From assembly GCF_963921235.1 (NCBI RefSeq), contig NC_086097.1, positions 165,666,001-165,730,000 of the forward strand: a stretch of DNA of 64,000 bases, in the 5' to 3' direction. Source of the stretch: Mobula hypostoma. Its lineage: Eukaryota. Below are positions 17,042 through 58,660 of the stretch, piece after piece (the first letter of the stretch is position 1; each line of letters begins with the position of its first letter). The notes beneath the pieces are model-generated. The model saw nothing but the letters and a program-made list of their open reading frames with translations. It had not been told where the DNA came from and searched no databases. A program made the position numbers and the translations under genes.

Positions 17042-18563
17042 CAGTGGACTCCAATTAATTGGACACATCAGGACCAGTACATTTTGGCCCGATTAAGTGG
17101 CTGCTCCAGTTAACTGACATTTCATGGAAATAGCTGAAAAGGTTAAAAAAAAAGTCAAACTAAAGCTGAGTAATAAATTATGTATTTAACTGAAATATAG
17201 AACAAATTAGAACATTACTAACGTTAATACAGAGCTATAAAATGGTGTATTAGTTTTAACGCAAACAACAGGAATTCTGCAGATGCTGGAAATTCAAGCA
17301 ACATACATCAAAGTTGCTGGTGAACGCAGCAGGCCAGGCAGCATCTCTAGGAAGAGGCGCAGTCAACGTTTCAGGCCGAGACCCTTCGTCAGGACTTGCA
17401 GCGAGAGGCCGAGTCAATAAAATATGAGTACCTGGGATCCTCAGAAGGTCCAAATTGAGAGGCTTGGAAACGAATCCTAAAGCCAACTGGAGTAAGTTGG
17501 CGACGGAGGCACGTTCCAAGAAAGGATATATGGCTGTGATAGCGAGATTGAGTCAAAGTATGGTCGAAAAGTTGAAGAGCCGAAGAAATTACAGATGGGG
17601 AGCAGTGAGAGATGGTTTCACTGAACTCCCGTCGAAGAGAGGATCTAAACTTCTTCGGTGTAGGCATCACCGGAAGAGGCTTCGCAGTAGTGAATTTAAA
17701 CGCAAACAACAGGAATTCTGCAGATGCTGGAAATTCAAGCAACATACATCAAAGTTGCTGGTGAACGCAGCAGGCCAGGCAGCATCTCTAGGAAGAGGCG
17801 CAGTCGACGTTTCAGGCCGAGACCCTTCGTCAGGACAAAGTCAATCCTGACGAAGGGTCTCGGCCTGAAACGTCGACTGCGCCTCTTCCTAGAGATGCTG
17901 CCTGGCCTGCTGCGTTCACCAGCAACTTTGATGTATGTTGCTATTAGTTTTAAATTGTTATTGATGGAGTTATCTATCCAGTGTACACTGTTGTGTTCTT
18001 TTGACTGTAAATGAACAAAATCAGTGTAGACATCTTGTGCAGATAACAGACAGCCTTCATACAATGCTTTGGATGATTCCATCCTACAAATCTTCTTTTT
18101 CATTATAACATTCAAGATGATTGTTGATACCTTCAAATTTTTTGTAGTCCCTGCATTGTTAAAATAGTGAAATCGTTCCATTTTCACTCTGGTCGTTTCT
18201 GGTATCTCCAAGCTTGAATGCTTGCAATCCCAGTAAGCAAGGCAATTATGAATTGTCTTAATGCTTATTTCTCACCAACTGTCCATGACAAAAATCACTG
18301 CTTTCTGAACACAAATACATTCAACTGATGCTATTTAAAAACTGTTTGCTTTAAACATGGTGTAGTGTCTTAATGGCCATGCAAGTGTGTGTGACTGATG
18401 CTACTTAAAAACTGTAGATCAACAATCTCCTGTCCCAATTAAGTGTCCCAAGTAAACTAAGATAACCCTAGCTGTTTTCTCAATTAGTTTTAGTTCTTTA
18501 AGAGTTGTCCCAAATAAGTGGCTGTCCCAATTAATCAATGGCCCAATTATCTGGAATCCACTG
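17042..18563. mobile_element. Tc1/mariner-pogo (Tigger-like) non-autonomous DNA transposon, interrupted by a PLE
   Basis: TA-CAGTGGACTCCAATTAATTGGAC ... GCCCAATTATCTGGAATCCACTG-TA: 19/23 TIR match and TA TSD. Partial left-end copy at ~20485-20660. Confidence 0.8.
17260..17941 (-). mobile_element. Composite Penelope-like insertion: two direct pLTRs around an ORF 5' segment, plus a third inverted pLTR
   Basis: 12-bp TSD TATTAGTTTTAA at 17248-17259 and 17942-17953. Hammerhead cores at 17361-17396 (-), 17802-17836 (-), 17845-17878 (+). Perfect 98-bp inverted repeat 17738-17835 / 17845-17942. Confidence 0.88.
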
Positions 18564-19249
18564 TACTTACAAATATATCTGTATGTCATTTGAATGCATA
18601 CTTGTTATGTCCCAAATCAGTTCAAAGCAGTTCAAGGATGTACAAGGTAAAACAAGGAGGAGAAGAAAAACCGCAGGAAGCTGGAAGTGATGCCATTACT
18701 GTGAATTACACATTGGCAAATGCAAGAAAAGCACAAATAAAATTTACAAAAAATGGGCAGAAATTAGCCACTATTTTCAAAGCATTGAAATCCCAAAACA
18801 GTGGGTGTTCCAAATATACGTTTCCTGCAAACTTGAAATCAGTATTATTGACATTTGTTTCTCAATCTTGTAGTTTCTGTCTTTGATAGTCGATCTGTGA
18901 TGATATTTTGAGTAATGGCAATGGCTTGCTAAAGTAGCAGATTTATTTTACCAGAGTTTTCACTTCCTATTTTATTTTCTTGTTTGAAAGTTAAAAGAAC
19001 CAAGTACGGAAACTTGGGAAATTACTTATTTCACAAAGTGAGATTTGATTTCAATTATGTCCCTATGTGTAGTTTGGTAATTTAACAGCTAAGACTATTG
19101 TAAAATATACACATGTGTATACATGAGGCATGATGAATTCAAGTAGTGTTTGTAGTTTATGCGTGGGCTCTTTATGGAGTTTTTCTGGAGCCTTCTACAA
19201 AACAGTTTAGAGAAAAGTCTAAGTGGTCGGGTCTCTGGCATTGAGTCCG

Positions 19250-20480
19250 CCTTTGTGACTCAGAAGTGGGTGGAGTTGGGGGAGAGAAGAGTGATGCTGT
19301 GGTGTTAGGGGAATGGACAGGAGGTTCTCTGGGCGAAAATAAGATACTCGGATGGTATGTTGCCTCCTGGGTGCCAGTTATGGAGCATCTCGGATCAAGA
19401 CCTCAGCACTGTTAAGTGGGAGAGTGCACAGCCAAAGGTTGTGGTCCATGTAAATCATGGACATGGGTAGGACGAGTGACAAGGTTCTGCATTGGGAGTT
19501 AGGTGTTAAGGTAAAGGCAGGATCTCCAGGGTTGTGATCTCAGGATTGCTACCTGTTCCACATGCTAGTGATGCCAGAACTAGGAATATTATAGAGTTTA
19601 ACACTTGGCTAAGGAGATGGTGTATGAGGGAGGGCATAAGATTTTTGAATCATTGGGCTCTCTTCTAGGGAAGGTGGGACCTGTACAGAAGGGACGGTTT
19701 GCACCTGAACTGGAAGGGGACTAATATCCTAGCGGGAAGATTTGTTAAGGCTGCATGGTGGGGTTTAAACTAGAGTAGCAGGGTGATGGGAACCAGTGCC
19801 AGAACAGACAGCGGAGTGGTTGTGCAGACAAATGTAGGTAAGACCTCAGACAAAGTCAGGAATCAAAAGGTTGAGCATAGTCCAACTGGTATCCTGATTT
19901 GCATATATTTCAATGCAAGAAGTCCCAACAAGAAAGCATGTGATACAGGATCTGCCACTAGGGAATGAGACAGGCCAGGTGACAGAAGTTTGTGTAGGGG
20001 AACACTTTGCATCTGATGATCACAATGCCATTAGTTTCAAAGTAAGTATGCAAAAATATTGATCTGGTACTCATTGAGATTTTAAATTGGAGAAAGGCCA
20101 ATTCTGATGGCATCAGAAATAACCTGGCAAGTGTGGATTGGGACAGGCTGTTTTCTGGCAAAGGTGTATTTTGTAAGTGGGAGACCTTTAAAAATGAAAT
20201 TTTGAGAGCACAAAGCTACTATGTGCCTGTCAGAATAAAAGGTAAAGATATCAAGTGTAGGGGGGCAGATGCGGAAATTGCTGGGGCCCTAGCAGAGATA
20301 TTTAAATCATCCTTAGCAACAGGGGAGGTACCAGAGGATTGGAGAATAGCCAATGTTGTTCTGTTTACAAAAGGCTATAAACATAAACCAGGAAATTATA
20401 GGCTGGTGAGTCTGACATCAGTTGTAGGAAAGTTTTTAGAAGGTATTCTAAAGAACCGGATATATAAGATTTGGATAGAC
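19250..20480 (+). mobile_element. Internally deleted CR1 LINE (ORF1 esterase and ORF2 fragments)
   Basis: DGLHLNWKGTNILAGR (SGNH esterase-type ORF1) near 19693; CIYFNARS; GEVPEDWRIANV..NYRLVSLTSVVGK. Confidence 0.8.
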
Positions 20481-20711
20481 AATTGCAGTTAATGGGGACA
20501 CATTGAGACCAGTGCATTTTGGCCCAATTAAGCATCTGCCCTAATTAACCAAAGTTTCATGGAAATAGTGAAAAGGGTATAAAAAAAGACAAACTACTAT
20601 TTAATTGAGTAACAAAGCATGTATTTAACTGAAATACAGAATAAATTAGAACACTATCAAAAGTGCTGAGAAAATTTACAAGGATGTTGCTGGATCTGGA
20701 GGATCTGATTT

Positions 20712-21521
20712 ATAAGACCATAAGACAAAGGAGCAGAAGTTGGCCATTTGGCCCATCGAGTCTGCTCCGCCATTTCATTACGAGCTGATCCAGTCTCCCA
20801 TTTAGTCCCACTCCCCCGCCTTTTCACCATAACCTTTGATGCCCTGGCTACTCAGATACCTATCAATCTCTGCCTTAAATACACCCAATGACTTGGCCTC
20901 CACTGCTGCCTGTGGCCACAAATTCCATAGATTCATCACCCTCTGGCTAAAAAAATTCCTTTGCATCTCTGTTCTGAATGGGCACCCTTCAATCCTTAAG
21001 TCATGCCGTCTTGTACTAGACTCTCATCATGGGAAACAACTTTGCCACATCCACTCTGTCCATGCCTTTCAACATTCAAAATGTTTCTATGAGGTCCCCC
21101 CTCATTCTTCTACTACTCCAAGGAGTACAGCTCAAGAGCGGACAAATGTTCCTCATACGTTAATCCTCTCATTCCTGGAATCATTCTAGTGAATCTTCTC
21201 TGTACCCTCTCCAATGTCAGCACATCCTTTCTTAAATAAGGAGCCCAAAACTGCCCACAGTACTCCAAGTGAGATCTCACCAGTGCCTTATAGAGCCTCA
21301 ACATCACATCCCTGCTCCTATACTCTATTCCTCTAGAAATGAATGCCAACATTGCATTCGCCTTCTTCACCACCGACTCAACCTGGAGGTTAACCTTAAG
21401 GGTATCCTGCACGAGGACTCCCAAGTCCTGTTGCATCTCAGAGCTTTGAATTTTCTCCCCATTTAAATAATAGTCTGCCCGTTTATTTCTTCTGCCAAAG
21501 TGCATAACCATACACTTTCCA
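20712..21521 (-). mobile_element. CR1 LINE 3' end nested in another CR1 fragment
   Basis: ORF 21113-21643 carries DLGVLV..KKANAMLAFISRGIEYRSRDVMLRLYKALVR; 8-bp tandem tail (TCTTATGG)n; TATAAGA repeated at 20711 and 21522. Confidence 0.85.
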
Positions 21522-21550
21522 TATAAGAAAAGATTGAATAGGTTAGGACT

Positions 21551-22208
21551 AGCAACACACATCAAAGTTGCTGGTGAACGCAGCAGGCCAGGCAGCATCT
21601 CTAGGGAGAGGTACAGTCGACGTTTCGGGCTGAGACCTTTCATCAGGACTAACTGAAGGAAGAACTAGTAAGAGATTTGAAAGTGGGAGAGGGAGGGGGA
21701 GATCCAAAATGATAGGAGAAGACAGGAGGGGGAGGGATGGAGCCAAGAGCTGGACAGTTGATTGGCAAAAGGGATATGAGAGGATCATGGGACAGGAGGC
21801 CTAAGGAGAAAGAAAAGGGGGAGGGGTGAAAAAAAACCCAAAGGATGGGCAAGGGGTATAGTCAGAAGAACAGAGGGAGAAAAAGGAGAGAGAGAAAGAA
21901 TGTGTGTATATAAATAAATAACAGATGGAGTACAAGGGGGAGGTGGGGCATTAGCGGAAGTTTGAGAAGTCGATGTTCATGCCATCAGGTTGGAGGCTAC
22001 CCAGACGGAATATAAGGTGTTGTTCCTCCAACCTGAGTGTGGCTTCATCTTTACAGTAGAGGAGGCCGTGGATAGACATGTCGGAATGGGAATGGGATGT
22101 GGAATTAAAATGTGTGGCCACTGGGAGATCCTGCTTTCTCTGGCGGACAGAGCGTAGGTGTTCAGCAAAATGATCTCCCAGTCTGTGTCGAGTCTGCGCT
22201 CTGTCCGC
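21551..22208 (-). mobile_element. Penelope-like element 3' end (GIY-YIG C-terminus, 3' UTR, pLTR with hammerhead at 21615-21650)
   Basis: RL.DHFAEH..PVATHFN..LRLEEQHLIFRLGSLQPDGMN; core CTGATGA..GAAACGTC on the minus strand. Confidence 0.88.
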
Positions 22209-24075: not shown

Positions 24076-24601
24076 AAAGAGAAATTACACACTGCAGATT
24101 GCAGTGAGCATAATTTGAGAGAGGTATATTTAGAAGTTTTGTCCACAGAACATCACTGTGGTACTGAGATAAGTTTTGTTTAAATTAAGAATAGGCTTAG
24201 GATGGGATACATGCACTTCATTGTGCCTTGTCCAAAAATACAGAACTTTTAGATAGATGCCAATATATCTAATAAGGAATTCAGGCAAAAATTCTTGTTA
24301 GAGTGTGGAACTTGTTACCACACAGAGCAGTTGATACTTTAAAACTGAGCTATTTATGACAATCTGGATAAGTACATTCTGCAAGAGAGAGAATATGTCA
24401 ATGGAGTGAGTTATTCTGTGGGGAGACCTGTGTACACGGTGTCTCTGCCACCCACTTACGCTGATCCCAGAATCATACAGAATGATGTAACATTCTGTGT
24501 AAATTTTCCGTCATCTATAGATGGGTGTAGTTGAGATCTTACTGTTTTACAAAAGTACTGCAGGTTCTGGAAATATGAAATAAAAACATAAAACCTTTGC
24601 A

Positions 24602-24793
24602 ACACACTCTAAATGCTGGAGGAACTCAGCAGGCCAGGCAGCATCTGTGGGGGGAAAAAAGTACAGTCGACGTTTCAGGCTGAAATATAGATGGAATTTT
24701 TTTTCCATAGATGCTGCCTAGCCTGCTGAGTTCCTCCAGCATTTTGTGTGTATTGTTTGGATTTCAAGCGTCCGCAGATTTTCTCTTATTTGT
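24602..24793. mobile_element. Palindromic Penelope pLTR insertion
   Basis: Inverted pLTR arms; 15-bp TSD CATAAAACCTTTGCA at 24587-24601 and 24794-24808. Confidence 0.85.
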
Positions 24794-24999
24794 CATAAAA
24801 CCTTTGCAGATATTTAGCAGGTCAGGTTGCATCTAAAGTGAGAGAGGGACAGAAACAGATTTAAAGTTTCATCTTTATTGGGAAGAATAGCAATGAGCAG
24901 TCTTTATAATGCATAGGACAGCATGGGTGACATAAGGGAAGATTTATGACACATTGGACTCTGGTGAAATTAAAATGACAAAGGGGATGACGGTGTCAT

Positions 25000-28930: not shown

Positions 28931-28957
28931 ATGAAACTCTATAGGGATTAGTTTATT

Positions 28958-29135
28958 GGAGAGACAAGAGTCTATACACGCTGGAATCAGAGCAACAGAA
29001 AATACTGAGGAATTCAATGGTCAAGCAGTAGCTGAGCACTACAGATGAAGGTTCTCAACCTGAAAAGATCACTGTCCATTTCCCACCATCGATATTACCT
29101 GACTCCCGAGTTCTTCCAGCATTTTGTGTGTTGCA
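28958..29135. mobile_element. Old palindromic Penelope pLTR insertion
   Basis: Degenerate inverted arms, core remnant CAGATGAAGG..CCTGAAA; 11-bp TSD ATTAGTTTATT at 28947-28957 and 29136-29146. Confidence 0.7.
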
Positions 29136-29224
29136 ATTAGTTTATTTTGAGTATTTGTTGTGAACATACAATATGAACTGTGATACCTCCAATGCTCCTC
29201 ATACAGTATAAGGTATAAAGAGAG

Positions 29225-30051: not shown

Positions 30052-30432
30052 CTTCTTCATCTGCCTTGCATGTTACACGCTTGGACGATCATGGTTCTCC
30101 ACATCGAACGATTCCTCGCAGCGTCAATGATATCTCGCACACTTAGATCTGCTAGTTCTTTCACAGTGTCCATATATTTTCTTCTTTGTCTTCCTCTTCC
30201 ACGTTTCCCAGGCATATGGCCTTGTAATGTAAGGCATTCTATTTCTCCCTTTCTGATGACATGGCCCAGGAATTTAAGTTTCCCCTCATTTAATGTTCTC
30301 ATTAAAGGTCTTTTTGTATGGGCACGTTGGAGTACTGTCTCATTAGTTACCCTATCTCTATATGATATTTTCAGCATTCTTCTAAGAAACCACATTTCTG
30401 TTGCTTCTAAGTTTCTTTGGAGTTCTGGTGTT
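30052..30432 (-). mobile_element. RTE-clade LINE, 3' part (split by the L1)
   Basis: TPELQRNLEATEMWFLRRMLKISYRDRVTNETVL..LKFLGHVIR..GKRGRGRQ; short (GAA)n tail. Confidence 0.9.
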
Positions 30433-30839
30433 GAAAACTCGTTCAAATTCGGAAACTGATCAAACAATGATTTATAAAATTCCGGACAATCCATATTAGG
30501 AGCATAAACATTAACCAAAACTACTTTTTTATTAAATAGTAAACCACTAACCAATAAAAATCTACCATTCGGATCAGAGATAATATCCTGTTGTATAAAA
30601 GTAACTGAGGAGTCTATAAAAATAGAGACGCCTCGAATCTTAGCATTGGAGTTCGAATGAAATTGTTGTCCCTTCCAGAATTTGAAAAAACGTAGTCTGT
30701 CCCCCCTCCGTACATGGGTCTCTTGTAAAAATAAAATTTGTGCTTTAAGTCTCCGGAACACTTTAAAAACTTTTTTCCTTTTAATAGGATGATTAAGACC
30801 ATTAGTATTCCAGGAGACAAAATTAATAATAGACTCCAT
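30432..30839 (-). pseudogene. L1 ORF2 N-terminal endonuclease, first 136 codons (inverted segment)
   Basis: MESIINFVSWNTNGLN..FLQETH..RGVSIFI..DPNGRF..NVYAPN: APE-type endonuclease motifs. Confidence 0.9.
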
Positions 30840-33800
30840 AAATCCTAAAGTCAACCCATAACAAGGAGGATTGACAATAGGCGCGACCCACAAACCCGGA
30901 GAGGAAACAGAACATACAAAAGATACCGGGGAAAAGGACGCAACCAATACTTCAATAATGTATATAGCCCAAAGAGAAACAAACTAAAACGTGAAGCCCC
31001 GCCCACCCCCCCCCCCCCCAAGACCCCAAGGCGAAATCTAAAGCAGACCCGCCAGAAAGAAGCAAGCGCTAAAACTACCCCCATGACTTCCGGTATACGC
31101 TCCCTAAAAAAAAGGTATAAATATGAAAAGGATCAGCTAATTGTAAAACAGTAAAAAAATAAGTAAAAAAAAGTTAGCTCAATTAAAATACACACAGAAC
31201 AGAACAAAAGCCGGAAAGTATATATTAAAAAAAAACCACAATAAACCTCAAACTCATGAATAGACACAGCAACAAAAAAAATAGGATTATTAGTGGTTTA
31301 TTATTTAATAAAAAAGTAGTTTTGGTTAATGTTTATGCTCCTAATATGGATTGTCCGGAATTTTATAAATCATTGTTTGATCAGTTTCCGAATTTGAACG
31401 AGTTTTCATTGATTTGGGGCGGAGATCTTAATACCTGTTTATCTCCAGCTTTGGACCGTTCGGCTCCTTTACGGACTTTACCTAATAAATCTGCAAATTT
31501 GATTAATTTTTTCCTTTCTGATTCTGGGTCGACGGACATTTGGCGTTTTCTGCATCCTCAGGAAAAAGATTTTTCCTTTTTTTCACATGTTCATCATTCC
31601 TATTCAAGAATTGATTATTTTTTCATTGATTCTCGTCTCATTCCTTCAGTGATTAAATGTGATTATGATTCTATAACCATTTCGGATCATGCTCCACTTA
31701 AGCTTTCTATTAAAATTATGGCCAATATACCAAACAATAGACAATGGCGTTTTAATTCGCTGTTGCTTCAGGACTCGGACTTTGTTAATTTTATGAATGA
31801 ACAGATTGAGCTTTTTTTTACAATTAACCATACAGAAGATATTTCGGTTAACACTCTTTGGGACACTTTTAAAGCCTATATTCGGGGTCAGATTATTTCG
31901 TATTCCGTTGCTTTGAGGAAGAAACAGAAGCAGGAGGAGATGGCAATTGTGGACAAGATTAAAGAAATTGATAAGAAATATGTTATGGCTCCTTCTGAGG
32001 AGCTATACAAACAAAGAACTGAACTTCAAATGGAACACAGTTTACTACTCTCGTCCTCGATTGTAAACCAATTAAAGAAAACAAGAAGTGATTTTTATGT
32101 TCACAGTGATAAAATTGGCAAGCTGCTGGCTAATCAATTGAAATCTAATTATGTTAAATCTCAAATCAATCAGATTTATAACCAAAATGATCGATTGATA
32201 TTGGATCATGTGGGGATTAATCAAACCTTTTGTGATTTTTATTCTTCTTTATATCAATCAGAGTCTCCTCGAGATTCTAAATATATGAATGATTTTTTAG
32301 ATATAGTTAGACTTCCCTCAGATTTCACAGGATATGTCTTCTTTATTAGATACTTCCATTACAATGGATGAGATTAAGAATGTTATTTTTTCTATGAATC
32401 TGGGGAAAGCTCCTGGCCCTGATGGGTTTACCGTTGAATTTTATAAATGTTTTGCTTCTTTATTGATTCCTTGGCTCTATAAGGTTTTTGAGGCTTCTTT
32501 GAAACTTGGTAAACTTCCGGAATCTTTTAATAGAGCATCAATTTCTTTAATACTAAAGAAGGATAAAGACCCTGCTCAATGTGCATCTTATAGACCAATA
32601 TCTTTATTAAATGTTGATTCTAAAGTTTTTTCTAAGTTATTAGCAAATAGACTAGAAAAAGTACTTCCTTCTATTATTTCGGAAGACCAAACGGGTTTTA
32701 TTAAAGGTCGTTACTCTTTTTATAATATTCGTACATTGTTAAATATCGTTTATACTCCCTCACAAAATGTTCCTGAGTGTGTTATTTCTTTAGATGCCGA
32801 GAAAGCTTTTGATAGAGTAGAATGGCCTTATTTATTTAAGGTGCTTGAAATGTTTAATTTTAGCTTGAAATTTATATCCTGGATTAAACTGTTATATCAC
32901 TCCCCTGTAGCCTCGGTTCGTACTAACTCCTTAAACTCACCTTTTTTTCCTCTCTTTCGTGGTACTCGACAAGGCTGTCCTCTTAGTCCCCTATTATTTG
33001 ATATTGCATTAGAACCTCTTGCAATTGCTATTCGAGAATCTTCAAATATTACTGGGATAACTCGGGGATTAAAGTCCCATAAATTATCACTCTATGCTGA
33101 TGATTTACTTTTATATATTTCTAATCCTGAGAGATCCATTCCTGCTGTTTTAGAGTTATTAGCACAATTTGGTCTTTTCTCAGGTTATAAATTAAATCTT
33201 AGTAAGAGTGAACTTTTTCCGATTAATAAACATCTTCCCTTATATTATAAATTTCCATTTAAATTGATTAATAATTACTTTTCATATCTTGGGATTAAAA
33301 TTACTTGTAAACATAAAGATTTATTTAAGACTAACTTTTTACCATTAATAGACCATATTACTCAACTTTCATCTAAATGGTTTCCCTTATATTTAACTTT
33401 GATTGGTCGTATTAATGCAGTTAAGATGTTTTTTTTGCCAAAATTTTTATATGTGTTTCAGGCATTACCAATTTTCGTTCCTAAATCTTTTTTTGATAAA
33501 GTTGACTCTAAAATTTCTTCATTTATTTGGCAGAATAAGAATCCGAGACTGGGTAAAATACATTTACAGAAAGCTAAGAGAGATGGAGGTTTAGCATTAC
33601 CTAACTTTAGATTTTATTATTGGGCTATTAATATTCGACATATGAAATTTTGGTTACTTGACCGGGACATACTATCTATTCCTAAATGGGTAGCATTGGA
33701 ATTACAATCTGTTCAGGGTTATACACTTGGTTCTATTTTAGGTTCCTCTCTTCCTTTTGATTCGAAACGCCTTAAGCAGGTCTCTAACCCGATAGTTAAA

Positions 33801-42050: not shown

Positions 42051-42828
42051 AACAACACACATCAAAGTTGCTGGTGAACGCAGCAAGCCAGGCAGCATCT
42101 CTAGGAAGAGGTACAGTTGACGTTTCGGGCCGAGACCCTTCGTCAGGACTAACTGAAGAAAGAGCTAGTAAGAGATTTGAGAGGGGGAGGGGGAGATCCA
42201 GAATGATAGGAGAAGACAGGAGGGGGAGGGATGGAGCCAAGAGCTGGACAGGTGATTGGCAAAAGGGATATGAGAGGATCATAGGATAGGAGGCCCAGGG
42301 AGAAGGAAAAGGGGGGGAAGGAAAACTCAGAGGATGGGCAAGGCGTATAGTCAGAGGGACAGAGGGAGAAAAAGGGGAGAGAGAGAGAAAGAATGTGTGT
42401 ATATAAATAAATAATGGATGGGGTACGAGGGGGAGGTGGAGCATTAGCGGAAGTTAGAGAAGTCAGTGTTCATGCCATCAGGTTGGAGGCTACCCAGACA
42501 GAATATAAGGTGTTGTTCCTCGAACCTGAGTGTGGCTTCATCTTTACAGTAGAGGAAACCGTGGATAGACATATCAGAATGGGAATGGGATGTGGAATTA
42601 AAATGTGTAGCCACTGGGAGATCCTGCTTTCTCTGGCGGACAGAGCATAGGTGTTCAGCAAAATGATCTCCCAGTCTGCGTCGGGTCTCGCCAATATATA
42701 GAAGGCCACATTGGGAGCACCAGACGCAGTATATCACCCCAGCTGACTCACAGGTGAAGTGTCGCCTCACCTGGAAGGACTGTCTGGAGCCCTGAATGGT
42801 GGTAAGGGAGGAAGTGTAAGGGCAGGTG
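42051..42828 (-). mobile_element. Penelope-like element 3' end with a complete GIY-YIG domain and a hammerhead (42115-42150)
   Basis: FTCESAGVIYCVWCSQCGLLYIGETRRRL..EH..HFN..EEQHLIF..QPDGMN (ORF 42444-42770). Confidence 0.92.
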
Positions 42829-43710
42829 TGGAATGTACAGTTTTTTACCCATCAGAAGTGTAGAAGCAACGCCTGATAATGACAGAGCAATCACGTCTGT
42901 CTGTGAACTTAGGGCAGAAGTCGCTAATAAGGGAAGTTTCTCCTGTTCCACCTGAAGCATCCGAAAATGGCCATTGTAATCAGCCTGCACCATAGTCTCC
43001 AAGGCATTTTTTTGGTATTGTACCAAGTTTTTACTTTCTAATCCCTTCTATCTACACAATGTCCATATCCCACCATTCTGTGCTATCTATGAACCTCTTA
43101 AATGCCTCTATTGGATTTGCCCCCACTGCCACTCCAACAAGGCATTCCAGGCATATATTAATCTAACTTGTTTAAACCATGGCTGGTCTCCTGCAGAAAT
43201 GTGGTACACAAATTTTCAGTTCTTCTTTGTGGTTCTGGTAGAACAAAAGCACTTGCACCAGGATGACCAAATAGCTAATACTCAGATTTCAATGGGTAAA
43301 ATAAAAATCAGCACTTTTTGGTCTGTGGAGTGCCTTCTATTGATGTTTTAGTAAAACAAAGTGTAGGTCACATCCTTGCCCTAAACCTATCTTGCATACA
43401 ATTTTTTTTAAATTTCTAGGTTATTACTGAGCCTTGCATGGGACTCTTACTGTAAATCAATGACTATCTGTGCTATCCCATTCTTGTGGCAAGGCAATGG
43501 GTATACAGTAATTTTGAATTGAAATAAACAAAACACTATTTCTAAACAACCAACTCAAAAGAAAATCTCAGCAATGTTTCTCAAAAGCAGTACTGAGAAA
43601 AATTAAAATGAAGTATCTTTTGCGTTATTAAGAGCCTTCTATTGAGGGCTTAGAAAAACTGAGAGTGTAGTTCACACACTTAGGCCAAACCTAACTTGCA
43701 TCTTGAAGTT

Positions 43711-43911
43711 ACATACATCAAAGTTGCTGGTGAACGCAGCAGGCCAAGCAGCATCTATAGGAAGAGGCGCAGTGGACGTTTCAGGCCGAGACCCTTCGTC
43801 CCTGAAACGTCCACTGCGCCTCTTCCTATAGATGCTGCTTGGCCTGCTGCATTCACCAGCAACTTTGATGTATGTTGCTTGAATTTCCAGCATCTGCAGA
43901 ATTCCTGTTGT
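43711..43911. mobile_element. Palindromic Penelope pLTR insertion
   Basis: 15-bp TSD TTGCATCTTGAAGTT at 43696-43710 and 43912-43926; arms join at ~43800 inside the hammerhead. Confidence 0.9.
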
Positions 43912-44399
43912 TTGCATCTTGAAGTTGTTTTGTTACAGACATTCTGTTTATTATTTATCTTTGGTGTATTGTAATCTGAGTCACAATCAAAGACAGACCA
44001 CATGGTTTATTGTGACTTTGTTTTCCTCCATTTAACGTCAGAGTTGTCTTTGCGGGTAGCTCCTAAGTAAAACATTGAATGAGCTGGCCTTAAACCACTG
44101 ACATGCATTCCTGTTTGTCTGTTGCCAGTTTTGCAAAATTTGGATTTTTTTTTTCCCTTGCAATGTCTGTAAACAGGGTTCAGTTTTCATGATGTAATTT
44201 CTGGCAAAAGCTTTTTAATTCCTTTGCCAATTGTGTTAAAACTTAGAATCACTTCATGAGATGAAATGAGACACTTCCATTAATGTAATGGTTTTCAAAG
44301 CTTTTGGGATGTTCCAAAGCTCTTTACAGCCAAAAAGCTGAAGGGAAGTGCAGAAAACACCACTGTCTTGTTGCACACAGTAAGATCCTGTGAGTATCA

Positions 44400-49250: not shown

Positions 49251-50179
49251 GATGCTATGGATGCTTGATGAGAACCTGCAGACTTCTACACTTAACCTGA
49301 GTGTGCAGGCTTCCTGAAGGAAACACAACTCCTTCCCCAGCTCAGGAGAGTTGTTTTTCAATTTCAGTATGGCATTCACTTGATGAGAGTGAGTGTAACG
49401 GGAATGTGGAATGTTAACTGAAAGTGCATGGGTTTTTCTGAGTTTCCTCGACCTCACCAGTGAAAGCAAGACAGGTAACAATGACATCCTGCAGGATCTG
49501 GGGTGCTTGTCAACAACACCTCACCCTTGTAGCACTGTCCTTGAGTGACTTCATAAAATATTTTCTTTGGAGAATTTGTGCTGAGAGTTATTTGGAAAGT
49601 ATTGGTGATAAATTTCTGGCCACTAGTTGTAAATTTAGTAGGTTACTTGCCAAATTTTGCTGAATATGTTATGTTCACTTTGCAGCCAAATGTACAAAGT
49701 GCAGACTGTTTATTCCCTTCCATAGATGCTGCCAGACCTGCTGAGATATACCTTAAGACGTAGGAGCAGAGGAGGGCCAGTCGGTCCATCGAGTCTGCTC
49801 TGCCATTGCATTGTGGCTGATTTGTTGCCCCTCACTACTCTGTTCTCCTGCCTTCTCCCCATAACCTTTGACACCTTTACTAATCAAAAATCTATCACTG
49901 CTTTAAACATACCCAATGGGTCGGCCTCCACAGCCATCTATGGCAATAAATTCCACAGATTCACCAATTTCTGACTAAAGAAATTCCTCCTCATCTCTGT
50001 TCTAAAGGGTCACCCCCTGTATTTTGAGGCAATTTCCTCTAGTCCTAGACTCCCCTGCTATAGGAAACACTCTGTCTAGCATTTCTACCCTGATCAGTTC
50101 TTCCAGCATTTACAGAATCTATTGTGTTTATAAAGTTCAGTCTGTACCAGTGTATTTTGGGATGAGAAGAGTGGCATGG

Positions 50180-53100
50180 CAACACACAGCAGGACAGGCA
50201 GCATCTATGGAAAAGAGTGAAAAGTCAATATTTTTGGCTGAGACCTTGGAAAGAAAGAGAAGTCAGTGTAAGAAGGTGGGTTGAAGGGAGGAAGGAGTAC
50301 AAGGTGGTAGATGATAGGTGAAACCAGGGAAGAGGGTGAAGTAAACAACTGGAAAGTTGATTGGTGAAAGAGATAAAGGGCTGGAGAAGGGGGAATCTGA
50401 TTGGAGAGGACAGAAGAAAGGGAAGGAAGGAGGAGCAGCAGAGGGTGATGATGGGTTTGGTTCATACCATCAGGTTGGAGGCTACCCAGTTGGAATACAG
50501 GGTGTTACTCCTCCAACCTGAGTGTGGCCTCATTGTGGCAGTAGAGGAGGCCATGGACTGACATGTTGGAATGGGATTGGGAAGTAGAATTGAAATGGGT
50601 GGCTACCCGGAGATCCCAATTTTCCAAGGACCCTAGACACCTTCAAACTATTTACTGACCAACCTCTAACTCCAACTCCAGCCTGGAGCTTGATCAACAG
50701 CACCTCTAGGCCGAGACTTTACCCTCTCTTCCCCTCTTCCCCTCTTCTCAGATATTACCAACTCTCTTCCTCTCTCTAGTCCCAGCTCTCACCCATGCCA
50801 GGTCTTCACAATTTCCTCTGACCTACTCCCTTCCGAGGCAGAATGTCCTGTACTCAGTAAGGGCCTTACCTTTATCCCCCTACATCCACACCTCAGTGAG
50901 TTCCATGCCCGCCATGATGCTGAGCTCTTCTTCTGTTGCCTCTGACTCTGAGCCTACTTCTTTGGCAAGGACTCTCCAGCCTGTACTGATCACCCCTTCT
51001 CCTGTCTTCAACCCTCCTACCCTTCCAGGACACCCCGCTCTGGTCTTCTGCTTGCTCTCAATCTTTTTATTGTTAATTGCCAATGAGACATCAACAGTCT
51101 TGACTTTAACCCTTCTTTCTCCAGTTGTAACCTCACTCTTTCTGATCATGCTGCTCTCGCTCTCTCAGCACCATCAAACCCACAGATAATGGGTGCTATA
51201 GTAGTCTGGCGTACTGACTTCTACCTTGCTGAGGCCAGGCAGCAACTCTCAGACACCTCCTCTCACTTGCCCCTCAAACAGGACCCCTCTAAAGAGCAAC
51301 AGGCCATTGTCTCCCACACCATCATCAGTGTTAACGCTGTGGATCTCCCATCCACAGCCACCAACCTCACAGTTCCCTTACCCTGCACCTCCCGTTTTTA
51401 CCTCCTACCCAAGATCCACAAACTTGCCTGTCCAGGTGGACTCGGTGTTTCTGCTTGTTCCTGCCCCACCAAACTTGTATCTGCATACCTCACCTCTGTT
51501 TTATCCCCCCACTGGTTCAGTCCCTCTCACCTACATCCGTGACACTTCCCACACTCTTGATCTTTTCAATGACCTTAATGTTCCCTGACTTCAATTGTCT
51601 CATTTTCACTATGGATGTCCAGTCCTTCTACACCTCCATCCCCCCATCAAGAAGGCCTTGTAGTTCTCTGCTTCTTTTTGGATACCAGACCCAACCAGTC
51701 CCCGTCCACCACCACTCTCCTCTGTCTGGTGGAACTAGTCCTCATCCGCAATAATTTCTTCTTTGGCTCCTCCCACTTCCTTCAAGCAAGCGGTGTAGCC
51801 ATGGGCACCTGCATGGGTCCCAGCTCTGCCTGCTTTTGTTGGAATAATCCATGTTCCAAGTCTACACCGGTATCGCTTCCCAACTCTTCCTACGCTACAT
51901 CGACAACTGCATTGGCGCTGCTTCCTGCACCCATGCTGAGCTCATTGACTTCACCAACTTTACCTCCAACTTCCACCCTGCTCTCAAATTTACTTGATTC
52001 ATTTCTGACACCTTACTCACTTTCTGGATCTCTTTGTCCCCATCTCTGCAGACAGTCTATCTACGGATATATCTTATAAACCTATTGATTCTCACAGCTA
52101 CCTGGACTATACCTCTTCCCACCCTGTCACTGGTGAAAATGCAACCCCCTTCTGCTCTTAGGATGTGGCTTTTCATTTCAGAACTGTTGTGATGTTGTCC
52201 TCATTCAAAGAAAGGGGCTTCCCTTCCTCCACCATCAACACTTCCCTAACTGGCATCTCTCGATATTGTGCACGTCTGCCTCACCACTTTCTCCCGCCGC
52301 CACATCAGGAATAGAGTTCCACTAGCCTCCGCATCCAGCACTTAATTCTCCATAATTTCCACCATCTCCAATGGGATCCCATCACCAAGCACATCTTTCC
52401 CTCCCCCTGCCCTCTCCCCCCCCACCAGCATTCTGCTTTCTATAAAGATCACTCCCTACATGACTCCATTATTCACACATCCCTCCACTGATACAACCCC
52501 CCCGCCCCCCCCCGTAATTATCCTTGCAAGCAGAACAAATGCCACACCTTCTCCCAAACCACTTCCCTCATGACCATTCAGGTCCCCAAAGAGTCTTTTC
52601 ACCTGTGAGCCTGTTGGGGCCATCTACTGTATCCGGTGCTCTCAGTGTGGCCTCCATTATATCGTGGAGACTCGGCGTAGATTGGGGCACTAATTCACCA
52701 AGCACCTATGCTCCATCTGTCAGAAAAATCGGGATCTCCCAGTAGCCACCCATTTAAATTCTACTTTCTACTTCCCATTCCAACATGTCAGTCCGTGGTC
52801 TCCTCTACTGCTGCAATAAGGCCACATTCAGGTTGGAGGAGTAACATCTTGTATTCTTTCTAGGTAGCTTCCAACCTGGTGGCATGAACATTGATTTTTA
52901 GAACTTCTGGTAATTGCCCCCTTCACCATTTCTGTCATTTCCACTTCCCTCTCACCTGCCCATTTCCTACCTCCTTTCTCTAGCCCTTTATCTCTTTCAC
53001 CAATCAACTTCCCATCTCTTTACTTCACCTCTTCCCAATCTCCCAGTTTCACCTATCACCTACCACCTTATACTTCTTCCCCCCACCTTATTAATCTGAC

Positions 53101-53255: not shown

Positions 53256-54039
53256 CATTTCAAGGCTTTGGGCTACCATTGTTAAATGACTTGCTGATGG
53301 GAGGAGGGGACTATTTAGGTGCAGATTCAAGGAGACTTGAAAGATGTGGCAGAGTTGTAGCCAAGAAGCTTATCCAAGGCATAATTATACTCATTGAAAA
53401 CTTTTCCTAATGCCGCACTGCAACAGCTTGAAATAGAATTGGCACTGGAAAATTTTGGCAGTCCCCACAGAAGATAAGTGTTTTTGCAGAAGATGAGCTT
53501 CCTTGGCATCTCTGAACACAACAAGGCAAGGGAACTCATCAGGGCATCACACCTTACTAGGTGTGCATTGGCAACTCTTTGGAGCAACCTTCCTTCCACT
53601 CTGCACCATGTGGCTATGCCTTATCACAGAATGAGCAAAAGGCTATTCAGCACACCAGCTCCACGTAGTCTCACTGCAAAAGCAGTCCAGTTAGCCCTAC
53701 TCCCTTGTCCAGTCTCTTCAATTGGTTTCCCTTCAGATACTTACCCACATTCCTGATGAAAGTTACGATTTACTCTGCTTCACTAAAACCTCTTGACCCA
53801 AAGAACTTGTCATGCAACTTTTGTTTCTTTTTGCCAATGCTTTCATTCTAATTCCCCTTGTCCCTAATTCTTCTGAAGGGTATCAGTTTGTATTTTTTAA
53901 AAAAGTCTATAGTATTTATCAGATACTTTTCTCTGTTCCAAGTTTCTCCAGGCTATCTAAAAACCTGATGTACCTAATCTCTAGAATATTTCACGATCTC
54001 TCCCATTACCCATCCAAAGCCATCCCATCTTTCCTATAA

Positions 54040-54246
54040 CAAGAGGAATTCTGCAGATGCTGGAAATTCAAGCAACACACATCAAAGTTGCTGGTGAACG
54101 CAGCAGACCAGGCAGCATCTCTAGGAAGAGGTACAGTCGACGTTTTGGGCCGAGACCCTTCGTCAGGACTAGGTTAGTCGACTGTACCTCTTCCTAGAGA
54201 TGCTGCCTGGCCTGCTGCGTTCACCTGCAACTTTGATGTGTGTTGC
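54040..54246. mobile_element. Palindromic Penelope pLTR insertion
   Basis: 16-bp TSD CCCATCTTTCCTATAA at 54024-54039 and 54247-54262. Confidence 0.9.
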
Positions 54247-56824
54247 CCCATCTTTCCTATAAAGTGGCACCAAGAATTGGACCCAATATCCAGTGTTTTG
54301 TAAAGTTCAGCATGAAATCTGTACCCTCTGTTTTTAAAGTATAGGTTATCACATACTTTTTTAGCCACTTTCTCAGCAAGCTCTTCTACTTCCAATTTCT
54401 CTGCAATTGTACCCTTTATAGAATTGTGCCCTTCATTAAAATTTTAGGAGCAGCTGCTTCCCCTCTGCTATCAGATTTCTGAATGGTCCATGAACTATTC
54501 CACTTTTGCACTATCTATTTATTTTTATCGTAAGTTAAAGTAATTTGTTATGTCTGCCACAAAACAAAAAAATCAAGTGACAATAAACCTGATAGTGATT
54601 CTAATAAATATTAAGAAAACCAGTTGTCCTAAAATTAACTTATGGCAAACCCCCTCATACAATTCTCTCCAGTACAAACAAGTTTCTCTGCTGCTCAAAA
54701 AGCAATTGAAAGGCCAAATGCTGTAAATCTGAAATAAAATTGAAAAGGTTGAAAATACTCAGTGTGTTTGTCAAGCCTGTGATATCTTGTCAAACATCTG
54801 TCAACTAGCCTCTGTCTTTTGGATCAGACCAAGAATCTGCTATCACTTTTTAGTCAACCTCTTGTCCTTGGGATATAAGAGTTGTGAGTGGCTGATGAGG
54901 CCATTGTGTGGTTCGCAGACTGTCCCGCTGATGGAGACAGGTAGGCTGGATGGGTATTTTATGAGGAGGTCCAGTTTTGCCTCTTATGCAGGGCTTCTGC
55001 CCTCTCAGGATGCATGGATGTTCCTTCTCCACTTTGAACAGTTATGGACTAGCATTTCCCAAGAGTTAAAGGGGATTTGCATCTATTCAAGGAGTGTTTG
55101 AGTGCATCCTGGAATTTTGAAAACTACCTGCCCAGTATTCATACAAATATAAGTGGCTGTTGACTGATGGCTTGTTTGCCAGATCTTTGTGTGAGGCTCC
55201 ACACAAAGTATCTGACCTGGATGCTTCACATTTTGGTATGGCAATGGCCCTACCCAAATCTCTGAAAAAATTGCAGAGTTGTGGACACACTGTTCAGTCC
55301 ATTATGAAAACCAGCCTCCCCTCCCTGAACTCAGTCTACACTTCCCACTGCCTCAGGAAAACAACCACTATAATCAAAGTCCCTTCCCACCCCAGTCCTT
55401 CTCCCTTCTCTCTCTTTCCATAGGGCAGAAGATGCAATAGAAATTGAAAAGATGCACCTACGTACAGCTTTGATTCCTGCTGTAGTAAATAAGACTCTTG
55501 AACAAATTTCTTGTGTGACAAGGATGAACTCTTAATCGCTCCATCTACTGTGTCATGGCCATTGCATTTTAATTGTCTACTTGCAAAGACCTTCTCTGTA
55601 CCTGTGACACTATAATCTGCATTCTGTTGTTGCTTTTTCTTTCTACTACTTTAATGTACTTGTATTTTGAAATGATCTTTATGGATGGCTTGCAAAGCAA
55701 AGATTTTCACTGTATCTTGGTACACGTGACAATAATAAATTGTCAGTTCAATAATCCATGTCACCAAAGCTTATAATAGAGTGCTTAGTAGACCAGCATC
55801 TTGGCTCTAGGTGTGCTAACTGATTGGAGACAATGGTAAGTTTCTTCATCAATCTTTGTCTTTGCTGATAAGAGGCTGCCAAGATATGGACAGCTATCTT
55901 CACTATACGGAAAATTGTGGTAGAGTCCCTAGTGTGGTTTAGTACTGGAGGGACAGGTTTGTAGAAGGCCATTGTTTTCCAGGTGTTTAGGCAATGCTAT
56001 TATTTGAAAGAATCAACAATGAATCAAAGTTCAAAGTTTGAAGTAACTTTATTATCAAAGTATGCATTTGCCACCATATAGTACCCTGAGATTAATTTTC
56101 TTACAGGCATTAGCCAACCACCAAATGTGCCCACATACCAACATTGTCTGTGAACTATAAGTTGAAGACTGAGTTTGGAGTGATCTTGGTTCTGGAGTGC
56201 TGACGTTGAACATTGAATAATTTCCCATTCATCCTGTAAATTAATTCTGCTCCAGAGGGGAGCTTGTTGAGGAAGATTTGAGGAGAGAGTATGTGTGATG
56301 ATAACCTCGTCAGAATCCAGTCCGCACTAGACTTGGACTCTGGTGGACTTGTTGGTTAGGATTACAGCTTGCATGTAGCAGAAATGGCATAAAATCAAGT
56401 TTTTCAGGGCATTAAAATTTGAGAATGATTTTCCTTCACCCCTCATGATTGGCAGCAAACTTCTTTTACTCGAGACATGATGTTTCCAGTCCAAGAAGCT
56501 AAGTGTCTCTTTGCAGATGCTAATTATGGCGGAACTCGAGGAACAGGGACCCAGTATACATTGTATTAAATAGAAAAGATGATGAGGGAAAGTCAGAGAC
56601 CAGGAGAAATTTGATCCAAAAGGAAGACTGCAGGTTGGTTGCAGGGATGTAGGGGAGGTTCTTCACATGGTAAAGGTCACTTTAGACTTTCTAAGTCCAA
56701 TTATCTGGTATAGAAACACCAACTCATTCTTCCCAGGACCGGCAGTCTCGTGCTCACATGCATTCACACCCATTGCTTGGTATCATTTCATGCCTCACTA
56801 TTTCATTTCCTTCAGTGTAATGTA

Positions 56825-57915
56825 AATTATAAGACCATGAGATATAGGAGCAGAATTGGGCCATTTGGCCTGTGGAATCTGCTCCGCCATTTCATCATGG
56901 CTGATCCATTTTCCCTATCAGCTCCAATCTCCAGCCTTCTGCCTGTATCACTGATCAAGAATCTATCAACCTCTACCTTAAATATACCGAATGACTTGGC
57001 CTTCACAGCTGCCTGTGGCAATGAATTCCACAGAATCTCTACTCTCTTGCTAAAGAAATTCCTCCTCATCTCCATTCTAAAAGGACACCCCTCTATTCTG
57101 AGGCTGTCATCTGGTCTTGGACTCCCCTACCATAGGAAACATCCTCTCCGCCTTCACTCCATCAAGGCTTTTCAACATTTGATAGGCTTCACTGTGGTCA
57201 CTCCTCATTCTTCTGAATTCCAGTGAATACAGGCCCAGAGCCATCAAACACTCTTCACATGACAAGCATTTCAATCCCAGAATAATTTTTTTAAAACTTC
57301 CTTTGAACCCTTTCTAATGCCTGCACATCCTTTCTTAGATAAGGGGCCCAGAACTGCTCACAATACTCCAAGTGAGGCCTCACCATTGCTTTCTAAATCC
57401 TCAACATTGTATCCTTCCTTTTATACTCTAGTTTTCTTGAAATGAATGCTAACATCACATTTGCCTTTCTCACCACAGACTCAACCTGCACATTAACCTT
57501 TAGGAATACTGCACAAGGACACCCAAGTACATTTACATCTCAGAATTTTGAATTTTCTCTCCATTTCGAAAATGGTCTACACTTTTATGTCTTCTACCAA
57601 AGTCCATGACTATGCACTTCTTGATGCTGTATTCCATCTGCCACTTCTTTCCCCATTCTCCTAATCTAAGTCCTTCAGGAAACCATGCTGATTAAGGCCT
57701 ATTTTATCAAGTACCTGCAAGTATCCCGAAACCACATCCTTGATTTATGCATTTGTGGTAAGGAACTTGCATACTCCAAAGGCCAAGGATTAGACTTTGG
57801 AGTCCAACATCTTCCCAACCACTGAGGTCAGACTAACTGGCCTAGATTTCCTTTCTTTTTTCTGCCTCTCTCCTTTGAAGAGTAAAGTGACATTTGCAAT
57901 TTTCTATTCCTCCAG
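56825..57915 (-). mobile_element. CR1 LINE 3' portion
   Basis: EMRRNFFSKRVEILWNSLP; aligns by eye to 20712-21521; (TCTTATGG)-like tail. Confidence 0.8.
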
Positions 57916-58251
57916 TAATGAATTGGTTTACTCCGGTACACCAGTAATATTTATGATGAATATAACAAAAGTTTAACATTATGATGTTATAAAACAGCAA
58001 TTTGCATACACTTGTATAAGTCTGTACTCTTCCACTTTCGTAGACCATCTCCCTGATACATCATCCCACCAGAGAGGTAGAGGCAGGCTGCTCCTACCAA
58101 TGCTGAGTTGCTTTTACTCAACATCCTTGCCCTTTGAAATATGCAAGTTCTTTACCATAGATGCTCTTGCTGTACCTGTTTAGGCAAAAATGGGTATTAG
58201 GGTACAAGGTAGTATGTACGTAGGTACTAAATGGGAAGGGAGAAACTAGAG

Positions 58252-58467
58252 CAACACACATAAAAGTTTCTGGTGAACGCAGCAGGCCAAACAGCATCTC
58301 TAGGAAGAGGTGCAGTGGACGTTTCAGGCCGAAACCCTTCATCAGGGTCTCGGCCTGAAACGTCGACGGCACCTCTTCCTAGAGATGTTGCCTGGCCTGC
58401 TGCGTTCACCAGCAACTTTGATGTGTGTTGCTTGAATTTCCAGCATCTGCAGAATTCCTGTTGTTTG
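58252..58467. mobile_element. Palindromic Penelope pLTR insertion
   Basis: 15-bp TSD AGGGAGAAACTAGAG at 58237-58251 and 58468-58482; arms overlap at AGGG (~58344) inside the hammerhead. Confidence 0.9.
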
Positions 58468-58660
58468 AGGGAGAAACTAGAGACACTTTGCTCAGAGCCC
58501 TTTTCATCATCAGTCCTTTGAAGCCTCTCTTCAGCTGCTAGCGATGAGCTGAAAGCCAGCTTACAAGCAGGCAATTGACCAATTACTGACTAAGGTTATG
58601 ATGTCCATCCCTATTGTGCACACTGTTGGTGTCCTCATGTAATTCCACATTTGGTATATT

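Follow-up and report, generated by a model that had tools for sequence, protein, structure and literature searches.

The window analyzed here is a stretch of 64,000 nt from Mobula hypostoma (GCF_963921235.1, NC_086097.1:165,666,001-165,730,000, forward strand); feature coordinates are given as window positions, and arm ends are counted relative to the GUC cut site of the hammerhead. Six TSD-flanked insertions had been described in this window as mini-palindromes, and all six inserts are recovered together with their TSDs of 11-16 bp, each as head-to-head PLE pieces. With the same TSD caller, a TSD of at least 11 bp was obtained by chance at 7 of 400 random window positions. The term mini-palindrome is appropriate for five of the loci, but the insert at 17260-17941 (TSD 12 bp, copies at 17248-17259 and 17942-17953) is a 682-bp tandem whose inner unit reaches into the beginning of the PLE ORF by 300 nt. 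The outer long arm with the tail occupies 17260..17395 on the minus strand (element -30 to about +105-111), and the inner tandem unit, also on the minus strand, occupies 17400..17836 (-30..+406), comprising the hammerhead, the tail and the first 89 codons of the PLE ORF with its ATG at 17667. The predicted minimal type I hammerhead core of this unit (CUGANGA, helix II, GAAAC-GUC) is located at 17806..17833 on the minus strand, while the inverted short arm at 17845..17941 on the plus strand (-29 to about +67-68) has its core at 17847-17874. Captured host DNA was ruled out as the identity of the spacer at this locus, because the spacer is the PLE ORF start, with 2,262 candidates genome-wide.

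The other inserts are simpler. That at 43711-43911 (TSD 15 bp, copies at 43696-43710 and 43912-43926) is composed of a minus-strand short arm at 43711..43800 (-25..+64) and a plus-strand long arm at 43801..43911 (-10 to about +101-104). At 54040-54246 (TSD 16 bp, copies at 54024-54039 and 54247-54262), the long arm comes first (54040..54169, minus strand, -30 to about +100-101), and the plus-strand short arm at 54177..54246 (-2..+67) follows 7 junction bases and starts at the cut site of the hammerhead. The arms of the insert at 58252-58467 (TSD 15 bp, copies at 58237-58251 and 58468-58482) overlap by 3 nt at the junction, the short arm lying at 58252..58346 on the minus strand (-28 to about +66-68) and the long arm at 58344..58467 on the plus strand (-20..+103). 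Two palindromes belong to an older subfamily: one of 192 bp at 24602-24793 (TSD 15 bp, 24587-24601 and 24794-24808), with the short arm on the left and the long arm on the right, and one of 178 bp at 28958-29135 (TSD 11 bp, 28947-28957 and 29136-29146), with the arms in the opposite order. The long arm of the latter is heavily decayed, with a local alignment score of 36 versus 62 for the short arm. The window also contains solo short-ended PLE copies, all on the minus strand, at 13243..13411 (-109..+65; TSD 14 bp), 21551..22195 (extending to -574, inside the 3' end of the ORF) and 42053..42829 (extending to -715).

The domain order of an EN+ PLE is found in a neighbouring copy, in which a 521-aa open stretch matches RVT_1 (E 0.002) and then GIY-YIG (E 0.0013), both matches being below the Pfam curated cut-offs. 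A second PLE copy matches RVT_1 with an E value of 3.6e-5. Assignment to the Penelope/Poseidon clade can serve as a lead only. Partial tandems of the pLTR are present: the tandem units at L283 measure 3516 bp, and upstream of the hammerhead more than 100 nt of the preceding unit are found in 20 of 30 ORF-start copies. Full-length copies thus do not all start at -30, and not every template ends there. The pLTR contains a putative minimal hammerhead, read from the motif, in which the core motif and the helix I and II pairing fit; none of the 11 Rfam matches at E<=1 on the six loci is to a hammerhead. Sub-threshold Rfam miRNA matches occur on three of the six loci.

Genome-wide, head-to-head pairs number 11,195 versus 87 tail-to-tail pairs, and 10,420 tailed arms are found among the former. 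Independent ends would be expected to yield ~2,400 long/long matches, an approximate value calculated from the pair and tailed-arm counts, whose anchors differ; only 103 are observed. Among the first 10 of these loci, four have long/short outer ends inside the TSD, three have an arm that continues into the ORF, one is complex, and two are candidates. When the insert is bounded by a TSD, the long/short arrangement is found in 115 of 115 inverted inserts, 95 of which were chosen without regard to tail status. These have the form of an inverted 5'-truncated copy with a tail at one end, the median tail being 38 nt (IQR 36-42), and their TSDs are 13-15 bp with a mode of 14 bp. Short ends lie at ~+63..+68 and long ends at ~+100..+103, and their exact positions are uncorrelated (rho 0.07, p 0.49). 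Arms of kilobase length obey the same rule, as do 14 of 15 inserts of the older subfamily, to which the palindromes at 24602 and 28958 belong. The preliminary description, which had assigned one long and one short arm to each insert across diverged subfamilies, is thereby confirmed as near-absolute genome-wide, with long/long far rarer than long/short (103 among 11,195 pairs).

Between insert ends and target, mean microhomology is 1.02 nt for long ends (n=94) and 1.34 nt for short ends (n=100), compared with 0.58-0.74 nt in two two-sided controls. Target preference is weak, AT-rich, and alike at both nicks. Unpaired arms are of both types, 24 of 40 being short-ended and 16 long-ended, implying that the short and long sites are both primary start sites. 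Solo short-ended copies carry TSDs, which shows that the short site primes independently. End microhomology, solo ends and the invariable long/short pairing of TSD-bounded inserts, together with the template variants and stops that the two arms mostly have in common (see below), favour the earlier proposal that both target ends prime reverse transcription at two fixed sites on the RNA. Judging from sequence, the palindromes are probably the shortest among the inverted insertions of a highly abundant PLE with an endonuclease, and the long and short ends would originate from different fixed priming sites, one for each target end.

Several other origins of the palindromes have to be weighed against this reading. 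It had been argued that the junctions differ and that each insert arose anew rather than as a copy of one MITE. Within the window the junctions do differ. Inserts in the genome are mostly independent, with 89 junction types among 104 inserts and no amplification of a single MITE, but some junctions recur and not all are unique. A few palindromic masters re-copied many times could account for the commonest junction, which has 283 copies (~2.5% of pairs), and for two rare junctions that are each present exactly twice, at distances of 1.9 and 0.84 Mb and with TSDs that differ. Yet the first 30 copies of the commonest junction occur in both polarities (13:17) with 9 haplotypes, which fits a microhomology hot spot rather than one master with a fixed interior. 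A twice-seen junction on C1 was ruled out as the mark of a MITE family, there being just 2 genome copies in each of the two cases. Moreover, kilobase arms with unrelated junctions keep the long/short rule, so that MITE-like amplification is largely refuted as the main source and scarcely credible. A further possibility is that hammerhead self-cleavage sets the 5' end of the RNA, so that cDNAs end at the GUC site, in line with the earlier statement that cDNA stops at the ribozyme. A small excess of inner ends is indeed seen at the cut site, with 17 of 208 within 2 nt as against 27 across the 20 nt on its flanks (pooled p 0.003; 7/100, p 0.13, and 10/108, p 0.006, in the separate samples). In contrast, 106 of 208 inner ends map to the 5' edge of the hammerhead, 24-40 nt upstream of the cut site, implying that most cDNAs were copied through the cut site, and many arms extend from hundreds to more than 1,600 nt past that site with the long/short rule kept. 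The statement must therefore be revised: cDNAs stop mainly in a zone at the hammerhead's 5' edge, and the cut site is only a minor peak. The cut site also lies in the middle of short palindromes, which favour joins that are symmetric, as found there in 3 of 104 inserts, and cleavage is dispensable in vitro (PMC11167929). We consider ribozyme-defined stops very improbable. In assembled RNA contigs from four runs on one full unit, which cannot show starts or ends, GT..AG ends were found at none of the 15 joints listed, 156 further joints being present; this counts neither for nor against a transcription start or a splice acceptor at -34.

The remaining alternatives differ in what the two arms should share. 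Between the arms of one insert, 19 of 223 diagnostic-site comparisons (8.5%) are discordant, as opposed to 43.6% for random pairs, and six private alleles are common to both arms versus 0.65 expected. Arm lengths are also correlated (rho 0.52, p 0.003, n=30), and both arms extend beyond -40 in 5 of 48 pairs compared with 0.69 expected. These shared variants could also originate from arm-to-arm gene conversion or from one dominant source locus at a time. The preliminary description had entertained an RNA dimer; one formed from unrelated sources is disfavoured because the arms mostly carry common template variants. A minority of inserts behave differently, with at least one discordant site in 14 of 50 and at least two in 4 of 50, suggesting that some used two templates or underwent later conversion. 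The latter four, whose arms come from different subfamilies, would be accommodated if each target end were primed on its own RNA, the two RNAs being paired, for example, via the palindromic helix III of the hammerhead, with a built-in long/short asymmetry. Minimal hammerheads are built to dimerise (PMC4209133), and strand displacement would be unnecessary. However, the arms usually share common variants and private alleles and cross -40 together, and a symmetric RNA dimer offers no obvious cause for the strict long/short pairing; such a two-RNA reaction therefore appears rather unlikely. Fold-back would explain why the arms share variants, why their lengths are coupled and why junctions show microhomology (overlaps of 1-14 nt at 25 of 50): the long-primed cDNA would fold back, be copied outward and be resolved at the short site, as self-priming has been proposed for Adineta PLEs (PMC3846280). 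Since the short-primed cDNA has no tail, fold-back would be available only to the long-primed cDNA, and the long arm should always reach furthest upstream. Instead, the short arm extends further in 15 of 30 unbiased pairs (e.g. -1115 versus -154) and in 27 of 54 pairs of a second sample, with a lead of sometimes 700-950 nt. Flips of the palindrome centre, one of which is suggested by L180/L183, would blur this comparison. Solo short-ended copies with TSDs also indicate that the short site primes alone, and we regard fold-back as quite improbable.

With priming at separate fixed sites as the preferred reading, the following course of events is moderately likely, judged from genomic sequence. 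A protein dimer would nick both target strands ~14 nt apart to leave two 3' overhangs, which would prime at different sites ~38 nt apart on the RNA, one at the short and one at the long site. Both primings would usually take place on one RNA segment, or on RNAs from one source locus; on the same segment, the RT coming second would have to strand-displace the cDNA ahead of it. Of the cDNAs reaching the zone, about a third would stop 24-40 nt upstream of the cut site, likely where the template RNA's 5' end lies or at the border of a hammerhead domain shielded by protein. Joining of the two cDNA 3' ends may then rely on microhomology or short fill-in, and no more than a minor class of ends would be due to ribozyme cleavage. 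We also put forward, as a doubtful but possible extension, that PLE integration is an obligatory asymmetric twin priming, in which the dimer hands the two target ends to the fixed start sites 38 nt apart. On the 5' pLTR segment, the 5' end of the RNA would lie just upstream of the hammerhead, and both cDNAs would run off there as "strong-stop" products; transfer to the terminally redundant 3' pLTR would regenerate the partial tandem, and failed transfer would leave a mini-palindrome. If true, one mechanism would account for the tail, the inverted ends and the regeneration of the pLTR.

The origin of the inverted ends, one-sided tail and tandem pLTRs of PLEs has been called unresolved (PMC8557442, PMC2377424, PMC11167929). 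Since a purified PLE system exists, the present counts yield directly testable predictions: long/long pairs should be ~99% excluded, the arms should share template marks and be coupled in length, cDNAs should stop in a zone at the hammerhead's 5' edge, and the nicks should be staggered by 14 nt. Short hairpin-forming inserts left by the family number at least 11,195 + 4,762 and bear on repeat annotation and, in view of the miRNA matches above, on false microRNA calls.

Earlier publications already cover inverted pLTRs, the tail at only one end, the two RT start sites and the nicking of both strands; what we add is the strictness of the long/short pairing and the coupling between the arms. Our search, mostly outside the subscription literature (e.g. 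the 2005/2006 PLE reviews), found qualitative statements only, and no published count of long/short pairing or twin-priming proposal for PLEs. Canonical EN+ PLE insertions carry a 5'-truncated copy in inverted orientation together with a tail of 30-40 bp (Craig et al. 2021, PMC8557442; Arkhipova et al. 2013, PMC3846280; Schostak et al. 2008, PMC2377424). The consulted portions of these reports are qualitative, with TSDs of 8-10 bp in Adineta, whereas here ~11,000 pairs are counted with TSDs of 13-15 bp; near-absolute pairing, coupled arms and the stop zone go beyond the same portions.

The closest biochemical counterpart is PAc, a Poseidon element of Anolis carolinensis, whose protein nicks and extends both target strands in vitro (Frangieh et al. 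2024, PMC11167929). The protein is a predicted dimer, and ribozyme cleavage is not needed (PMC11167929). Downstream of its minimal hammerhead, PAc starts RT at two internal sites flanking the tail (PMC11167929), an arrangement that the Mobula element would share. In the available text of that paper, however, no strand difference in start site is reported, and neither inverted inserts nor long/short pairing is derived; the sites are called AC-rich on the RNA (PMC11167929), while the Mobula RNA is GU-rich at both. The predicted Mobula hammerhead is alike in core motif and helix layout to the minimal hammerheads of metazoan PLEs, which have a bulged base before helix II, a short helix I and a loop-less palindromic helix III (Cervera and De la Pena 2014, PMC4209133). 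That work describes paired hammerhead motifs 100-700 bp apart on opposite strands in Schistosoma, and an intron ending at the 5' end of helix I in D. virilis (PMC4209133); end pairing and junction position, analyzed here, are not treated in its available sections.

In LINE-1 twin or dual priming, both target 3' ends prime, giving inverted cDNAs within one TSD (average 14 bp) with microhomology (Meyer et al. 2010, PMC2837659). The Mobula inserts likewise contain two inverted cDNAs in a single TSD of similar size, with priming microhomology at both target ends. The second L1 priming site is variable and internal, however, and the pieces are non-overlapping with an internal deletion (PMC2837659), whereas the two sites of the Mobula PLE have fixed positions 38 nt from each other, the arms overlap and span one sequence, and inversion is common. 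The PLE reaction thus resembles twin priming in its working and differs from its L1 form.

Inverted copies of the Penelope-like element (PLE) join one tailed, long (L) end to one tailless, short (S) end, and this rule is real and unusually strict in a PLE of known kind. All 115 inverted inserts with a callable TSD of at least 10 bp are L/S; the count leaves out inserts without a called TSD and comprises 62 from the unbiased and mini sets (minis being short head-to-head palindromes), 6 from the blocks and the window, 27 from the junction search, 14 from the long-arm query and 6 from the L/L search. Numbered from the hammerhead cut site (0, the C of GUC; +1, the following base), long ends fall at +100 to +103 in 66 of the 115 and short ends at +63 to +68 in 85, with a median tail of 38 nt; TSDs measure 11-19 bp, and 13-15 bp in 89 inserts. 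Across the 3.48-Gb genome, in which the window occupies G000:C1:165666001-165730000, exact patterns with anchors 30-210 nt apart recovered 11,195 head-to-head pairs versus 87 tail-to-tail ones, and the tail 5-mer occurs in 10,420 of their arms (5,257 + 5,163), approximately one per pair. The L/L pattern matched only 103 times against about 2,400 expected under independence, the latter being rough arithmetic from counts with different anchors. Among the first 10 L/L loci, four carry L/S outer ends within a TSD, three have an arm continuing into the ORF, one is complex and two are still candidates. The first 50 minis on contig C1 comprise 46 L/S, three L with an ambiguous partner and one S/S call, in which a tail with a deletion is present by eye. 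The next 54, chosen for one tail 5-mer and therefore informative on L/L only, gave 53 L/S, no L/L and one S/S call, whose tail is present with an internal duplication. An older subfamily provides 4,762 pairs, 14 of the first 15 being L/S. The fixed pairing put forward in the preliminary description, and its validity in diverged subfamilies, are thus upheld.

The six TSD-flanked inserts reported there for the window (17260, 24602, 28958, 43711, 54040 and 58252) do exist, with TSDs of 12, 15, 11, 15, 16 and 15 bp; the caller returns a comparable TSD (11 bp or more) at 7 of 400 random window positions. In the four young inserts, one arm ends near +64 to +68 and the other near +101 to +105, and the two of the older subfamily (24602 and 28958) agree with the long/short layout, the long arm of 28958 being badly decayed. 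Describing all six as mini-palindromes is right as to their inverted long and short ends and fails for 17260, a 682-bp insert that runs from a long arm through an inner tandem unit, reaching 300 nt into the ORF start, to an inverted short arm. As DNA, the insert at 58252 forms a single hairpin (z -19). At 54160-54185, the short arm begins at the cut site, after a few bases that match the stretch immediately upstream of the hammerhead core; in this single case it looks as though the core had been left out between the strands of helix I. Further small inverted pairs lie at 3898-3964, 7344-7508, 12922-13023 and 49705-50244; those at 7344-7508 and 49705-50244 are head-to-head matches to the older PLE subfamily, and 12922-13023 looks similar. 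Two unrelated inverted-repeat elements, at 4728-5187 (arms 137 nt, 95%) and 30432-31408 (arms 119 nt, 99%), are probably DNA-transposon derivatives, and a weak, sub-threshold U4 snRNA match at 53335-53473 (29.7 bits, cut-off 46) is possibly a pseudogene.

The full PLE unit spans 3516 bp and is found in tandem. At G000:C21:136334000-136349999, three tandem pLTRs are spaced 3516 bp, both full units share identical frame breaks, and an LTR-type pol frame, 797 codons long and on the opposite strand, follows. An insert 75 kb outside the window consists of a 1.8-kb long arm and a 0.87-kb inverted short arm with a 15-bp TSD; its 521-aa open frame matches RVT_1 followed by GIY-YIG, each scoring below its curated threshold. 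An exact 21-mer from the arm has 92,809 genome copies. The pLTR carries a putative minimal type I hammerhead motif, with a helix I of 4-5 bp, a bulged A, helix II and GAAAC adjoining GUC. Directly before helix I, at about -50 to -33, lies a pyrimidine tract ending in CAG (-36 to -34), as at window 21647-21670 on the minus strand; it would fit the consensus of either an initiator or a splice acceptor. In D. virilis, PMC4209133 places an intron end at helix I. Both start sites, +63 to +68 and +100 to +103, have GU-rich RNA, and each falls either in the 3' half of a predicted stem-loop or a little way inside one.

Both element ends behave as primers. Bases common to element end and target average 1.02 at L ends (n=94) and 1.34 at S ends (n=100), ends with unaligned bases being dropped, compared with 0.58 and 0.74 for swapped real nicks and 0.70 and 0.74 for composition controls (p at most 0.0005). 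Of 112 arms around the first 100 anchor matches of C1, 40 (24 S and 16 L) are unpaired within the stretch covered, so each site can begin an insertion alone. The excess microhomology and the unpaired arms of both kinds lend good support to the earlier idea that both target ends prime at two fixed RNA sites.

The companion idea, that cDNA stops at the ribozyme, is mostly not borne out. Inner ends fall at -40 to -24 in 55 of 100 and 51 of 108 arms of two samples (106/208), beyond -40 in only 16/208 and within 2 nt of the cut site in only 17/208 (p 0.13 and 0.006 per sample, pooled 0.003). The core of the zone, -36 to -28, holds 70 ends versus 53 in 18 flanking nt (p 7e-8), and the stop rate in unbiased arms is 1.9% per nt within the zone and 0.34% and 0.37% on either side. 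The zone corresponds to helix I's 5' strand, implying that cDNAs ending there copied the entire ribozyme; its upstream wall coincides with the pyrimidine tract and CAG. It is a partial barrier, because 20 of 30 ORF-start copies extend more than 100 nt upstream; one extends about 70 nt, at most two begin at -30 and seven begin within the pLTR. At the cut site there is a minor peak of stops, which coincides with short palindromes favouring symmetric joins. One solo insert (L125, G000:C1:1756942), roughly 63 bp long and with a TSD, starts exactly at +1.

In the best model, which we regard as fairly probable, staggered nicks about 14 nt apart would leave two 3' overhangs, one priming at the short and the other at the long site, for the most part on a single RNA segment; the two cDNAs would often halt at the 5' edge of the hammerhead, and microhomology would join their ends. 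Its anatomy and counts are observed, and we infer how the dimer is arranged, that strands are displaced and what causes the stop. From allele comparisons, the arms appear mostly to share one template. At 8 variable sites they differ in 19 of 223 comparisons (8.5%) versus 43.6 ± 3.8% for random pairs, with 6 rare alleles common to both arms against 0.65 expected. The lengths of the two arms are correlated (rho 0.52, p 0.003), with both extending beyond -100 in 7 of 30 pairs (Fisher p 0.0004), and both arms run past -40 in 5 of 48 minis versus 0.69 expected, one member of each local twin having been removed; the sole two ends beyond -40 in the second mini sample come from one insert. Part of this agreement between arms could also arise from arm-to-arm gene conversion, or if only a single source locus is active at any one time. 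Separate RNAs templating the two arms would agree with the discordant sites (at least one in 14 of 50 minis, at least two in 4 of 50), which exceed the 3.4% background difference, but the low arm-to-arm difference makes this unlikely. If a long-primed cDNA folded back, the long arm would have to be the one extending furthest upstream. Fold-back is quite improbable since the short arm is the further-reaching one in 15 of 30 unbiased pairs (the long arm in 11, with 4 ties) and in 27 of 54 minis (the long arm in 18, with 9 ties), a test that could be weaker if the centre flipped later.

Stops defined by cleavage would account for the minor cut-site peak (pooled p 0.003), but the cDNAs ending in the stop zone had copied the whole ribozyme, and we give this explanation very little credence. 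MITE-like copying is likewise highly improbable, given 89 junction types among 104 minis (in the first 50, 25 overlap, 7 blunt and 18 with added bases) and a commonest junction, -24/-34, that occurs in both polarities. Its 283 copies fit a hot spot; the first 30 are all L/S, with polarity 13:17 and 9 haplotypes. Two rare junctions have exactly two copies each in the genome, as local pairs on C1 whose members differ in their flanks and are separated by 1.9 and 0.84 Mb: L160/L170 (G000:C1:3842099 and 5740601), 99% identical over 200 bp, and L180/L183 (G000:C1:8875225 and 9715457), whose centre is reversed with respect to the L and S ends. They may have arisen by local re-copying or through ectopic conversion from one palindrome to another. 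L324/L325 (G000:C1:25644516 and 25704524), 60 kb apart, share a common junction and polarity at 97.8% identity with different TSDs, other carriers of the junction being 91-92% identical, and may be a third local pair. That each insert arose anew therefore holds for most, with the twice-found junctions as possible exceptions.

The proposed dual-end priming has relatives in known systems. PMC2837659 describes twin priming and dual priming for L1, and PMC2377424 calls pLTR regeneration unexplained. A literature search, mostly without subscription papers, found no pairing count and no twin-priming model for PLEs, and passages of bioRxiv 2024.12.14.628481 add nothing specific. PMC11167929 reports two RT start sites bounding the tail, both strands nicked and extended, a predicted dimer and dispensable ribozyme cleavage; the anole PLE start site is described there as AC-rich, whereas the sites here are GU-rich. 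The pLTR hammerhead belongs to the same motif class as the minimal hammerheads that PMC4209133 describes as paired on opposite strands 100-700 bp apart. The qualitative description of the PLE layout is already published, and the pairing counts make an open mechanistic question directly testable.
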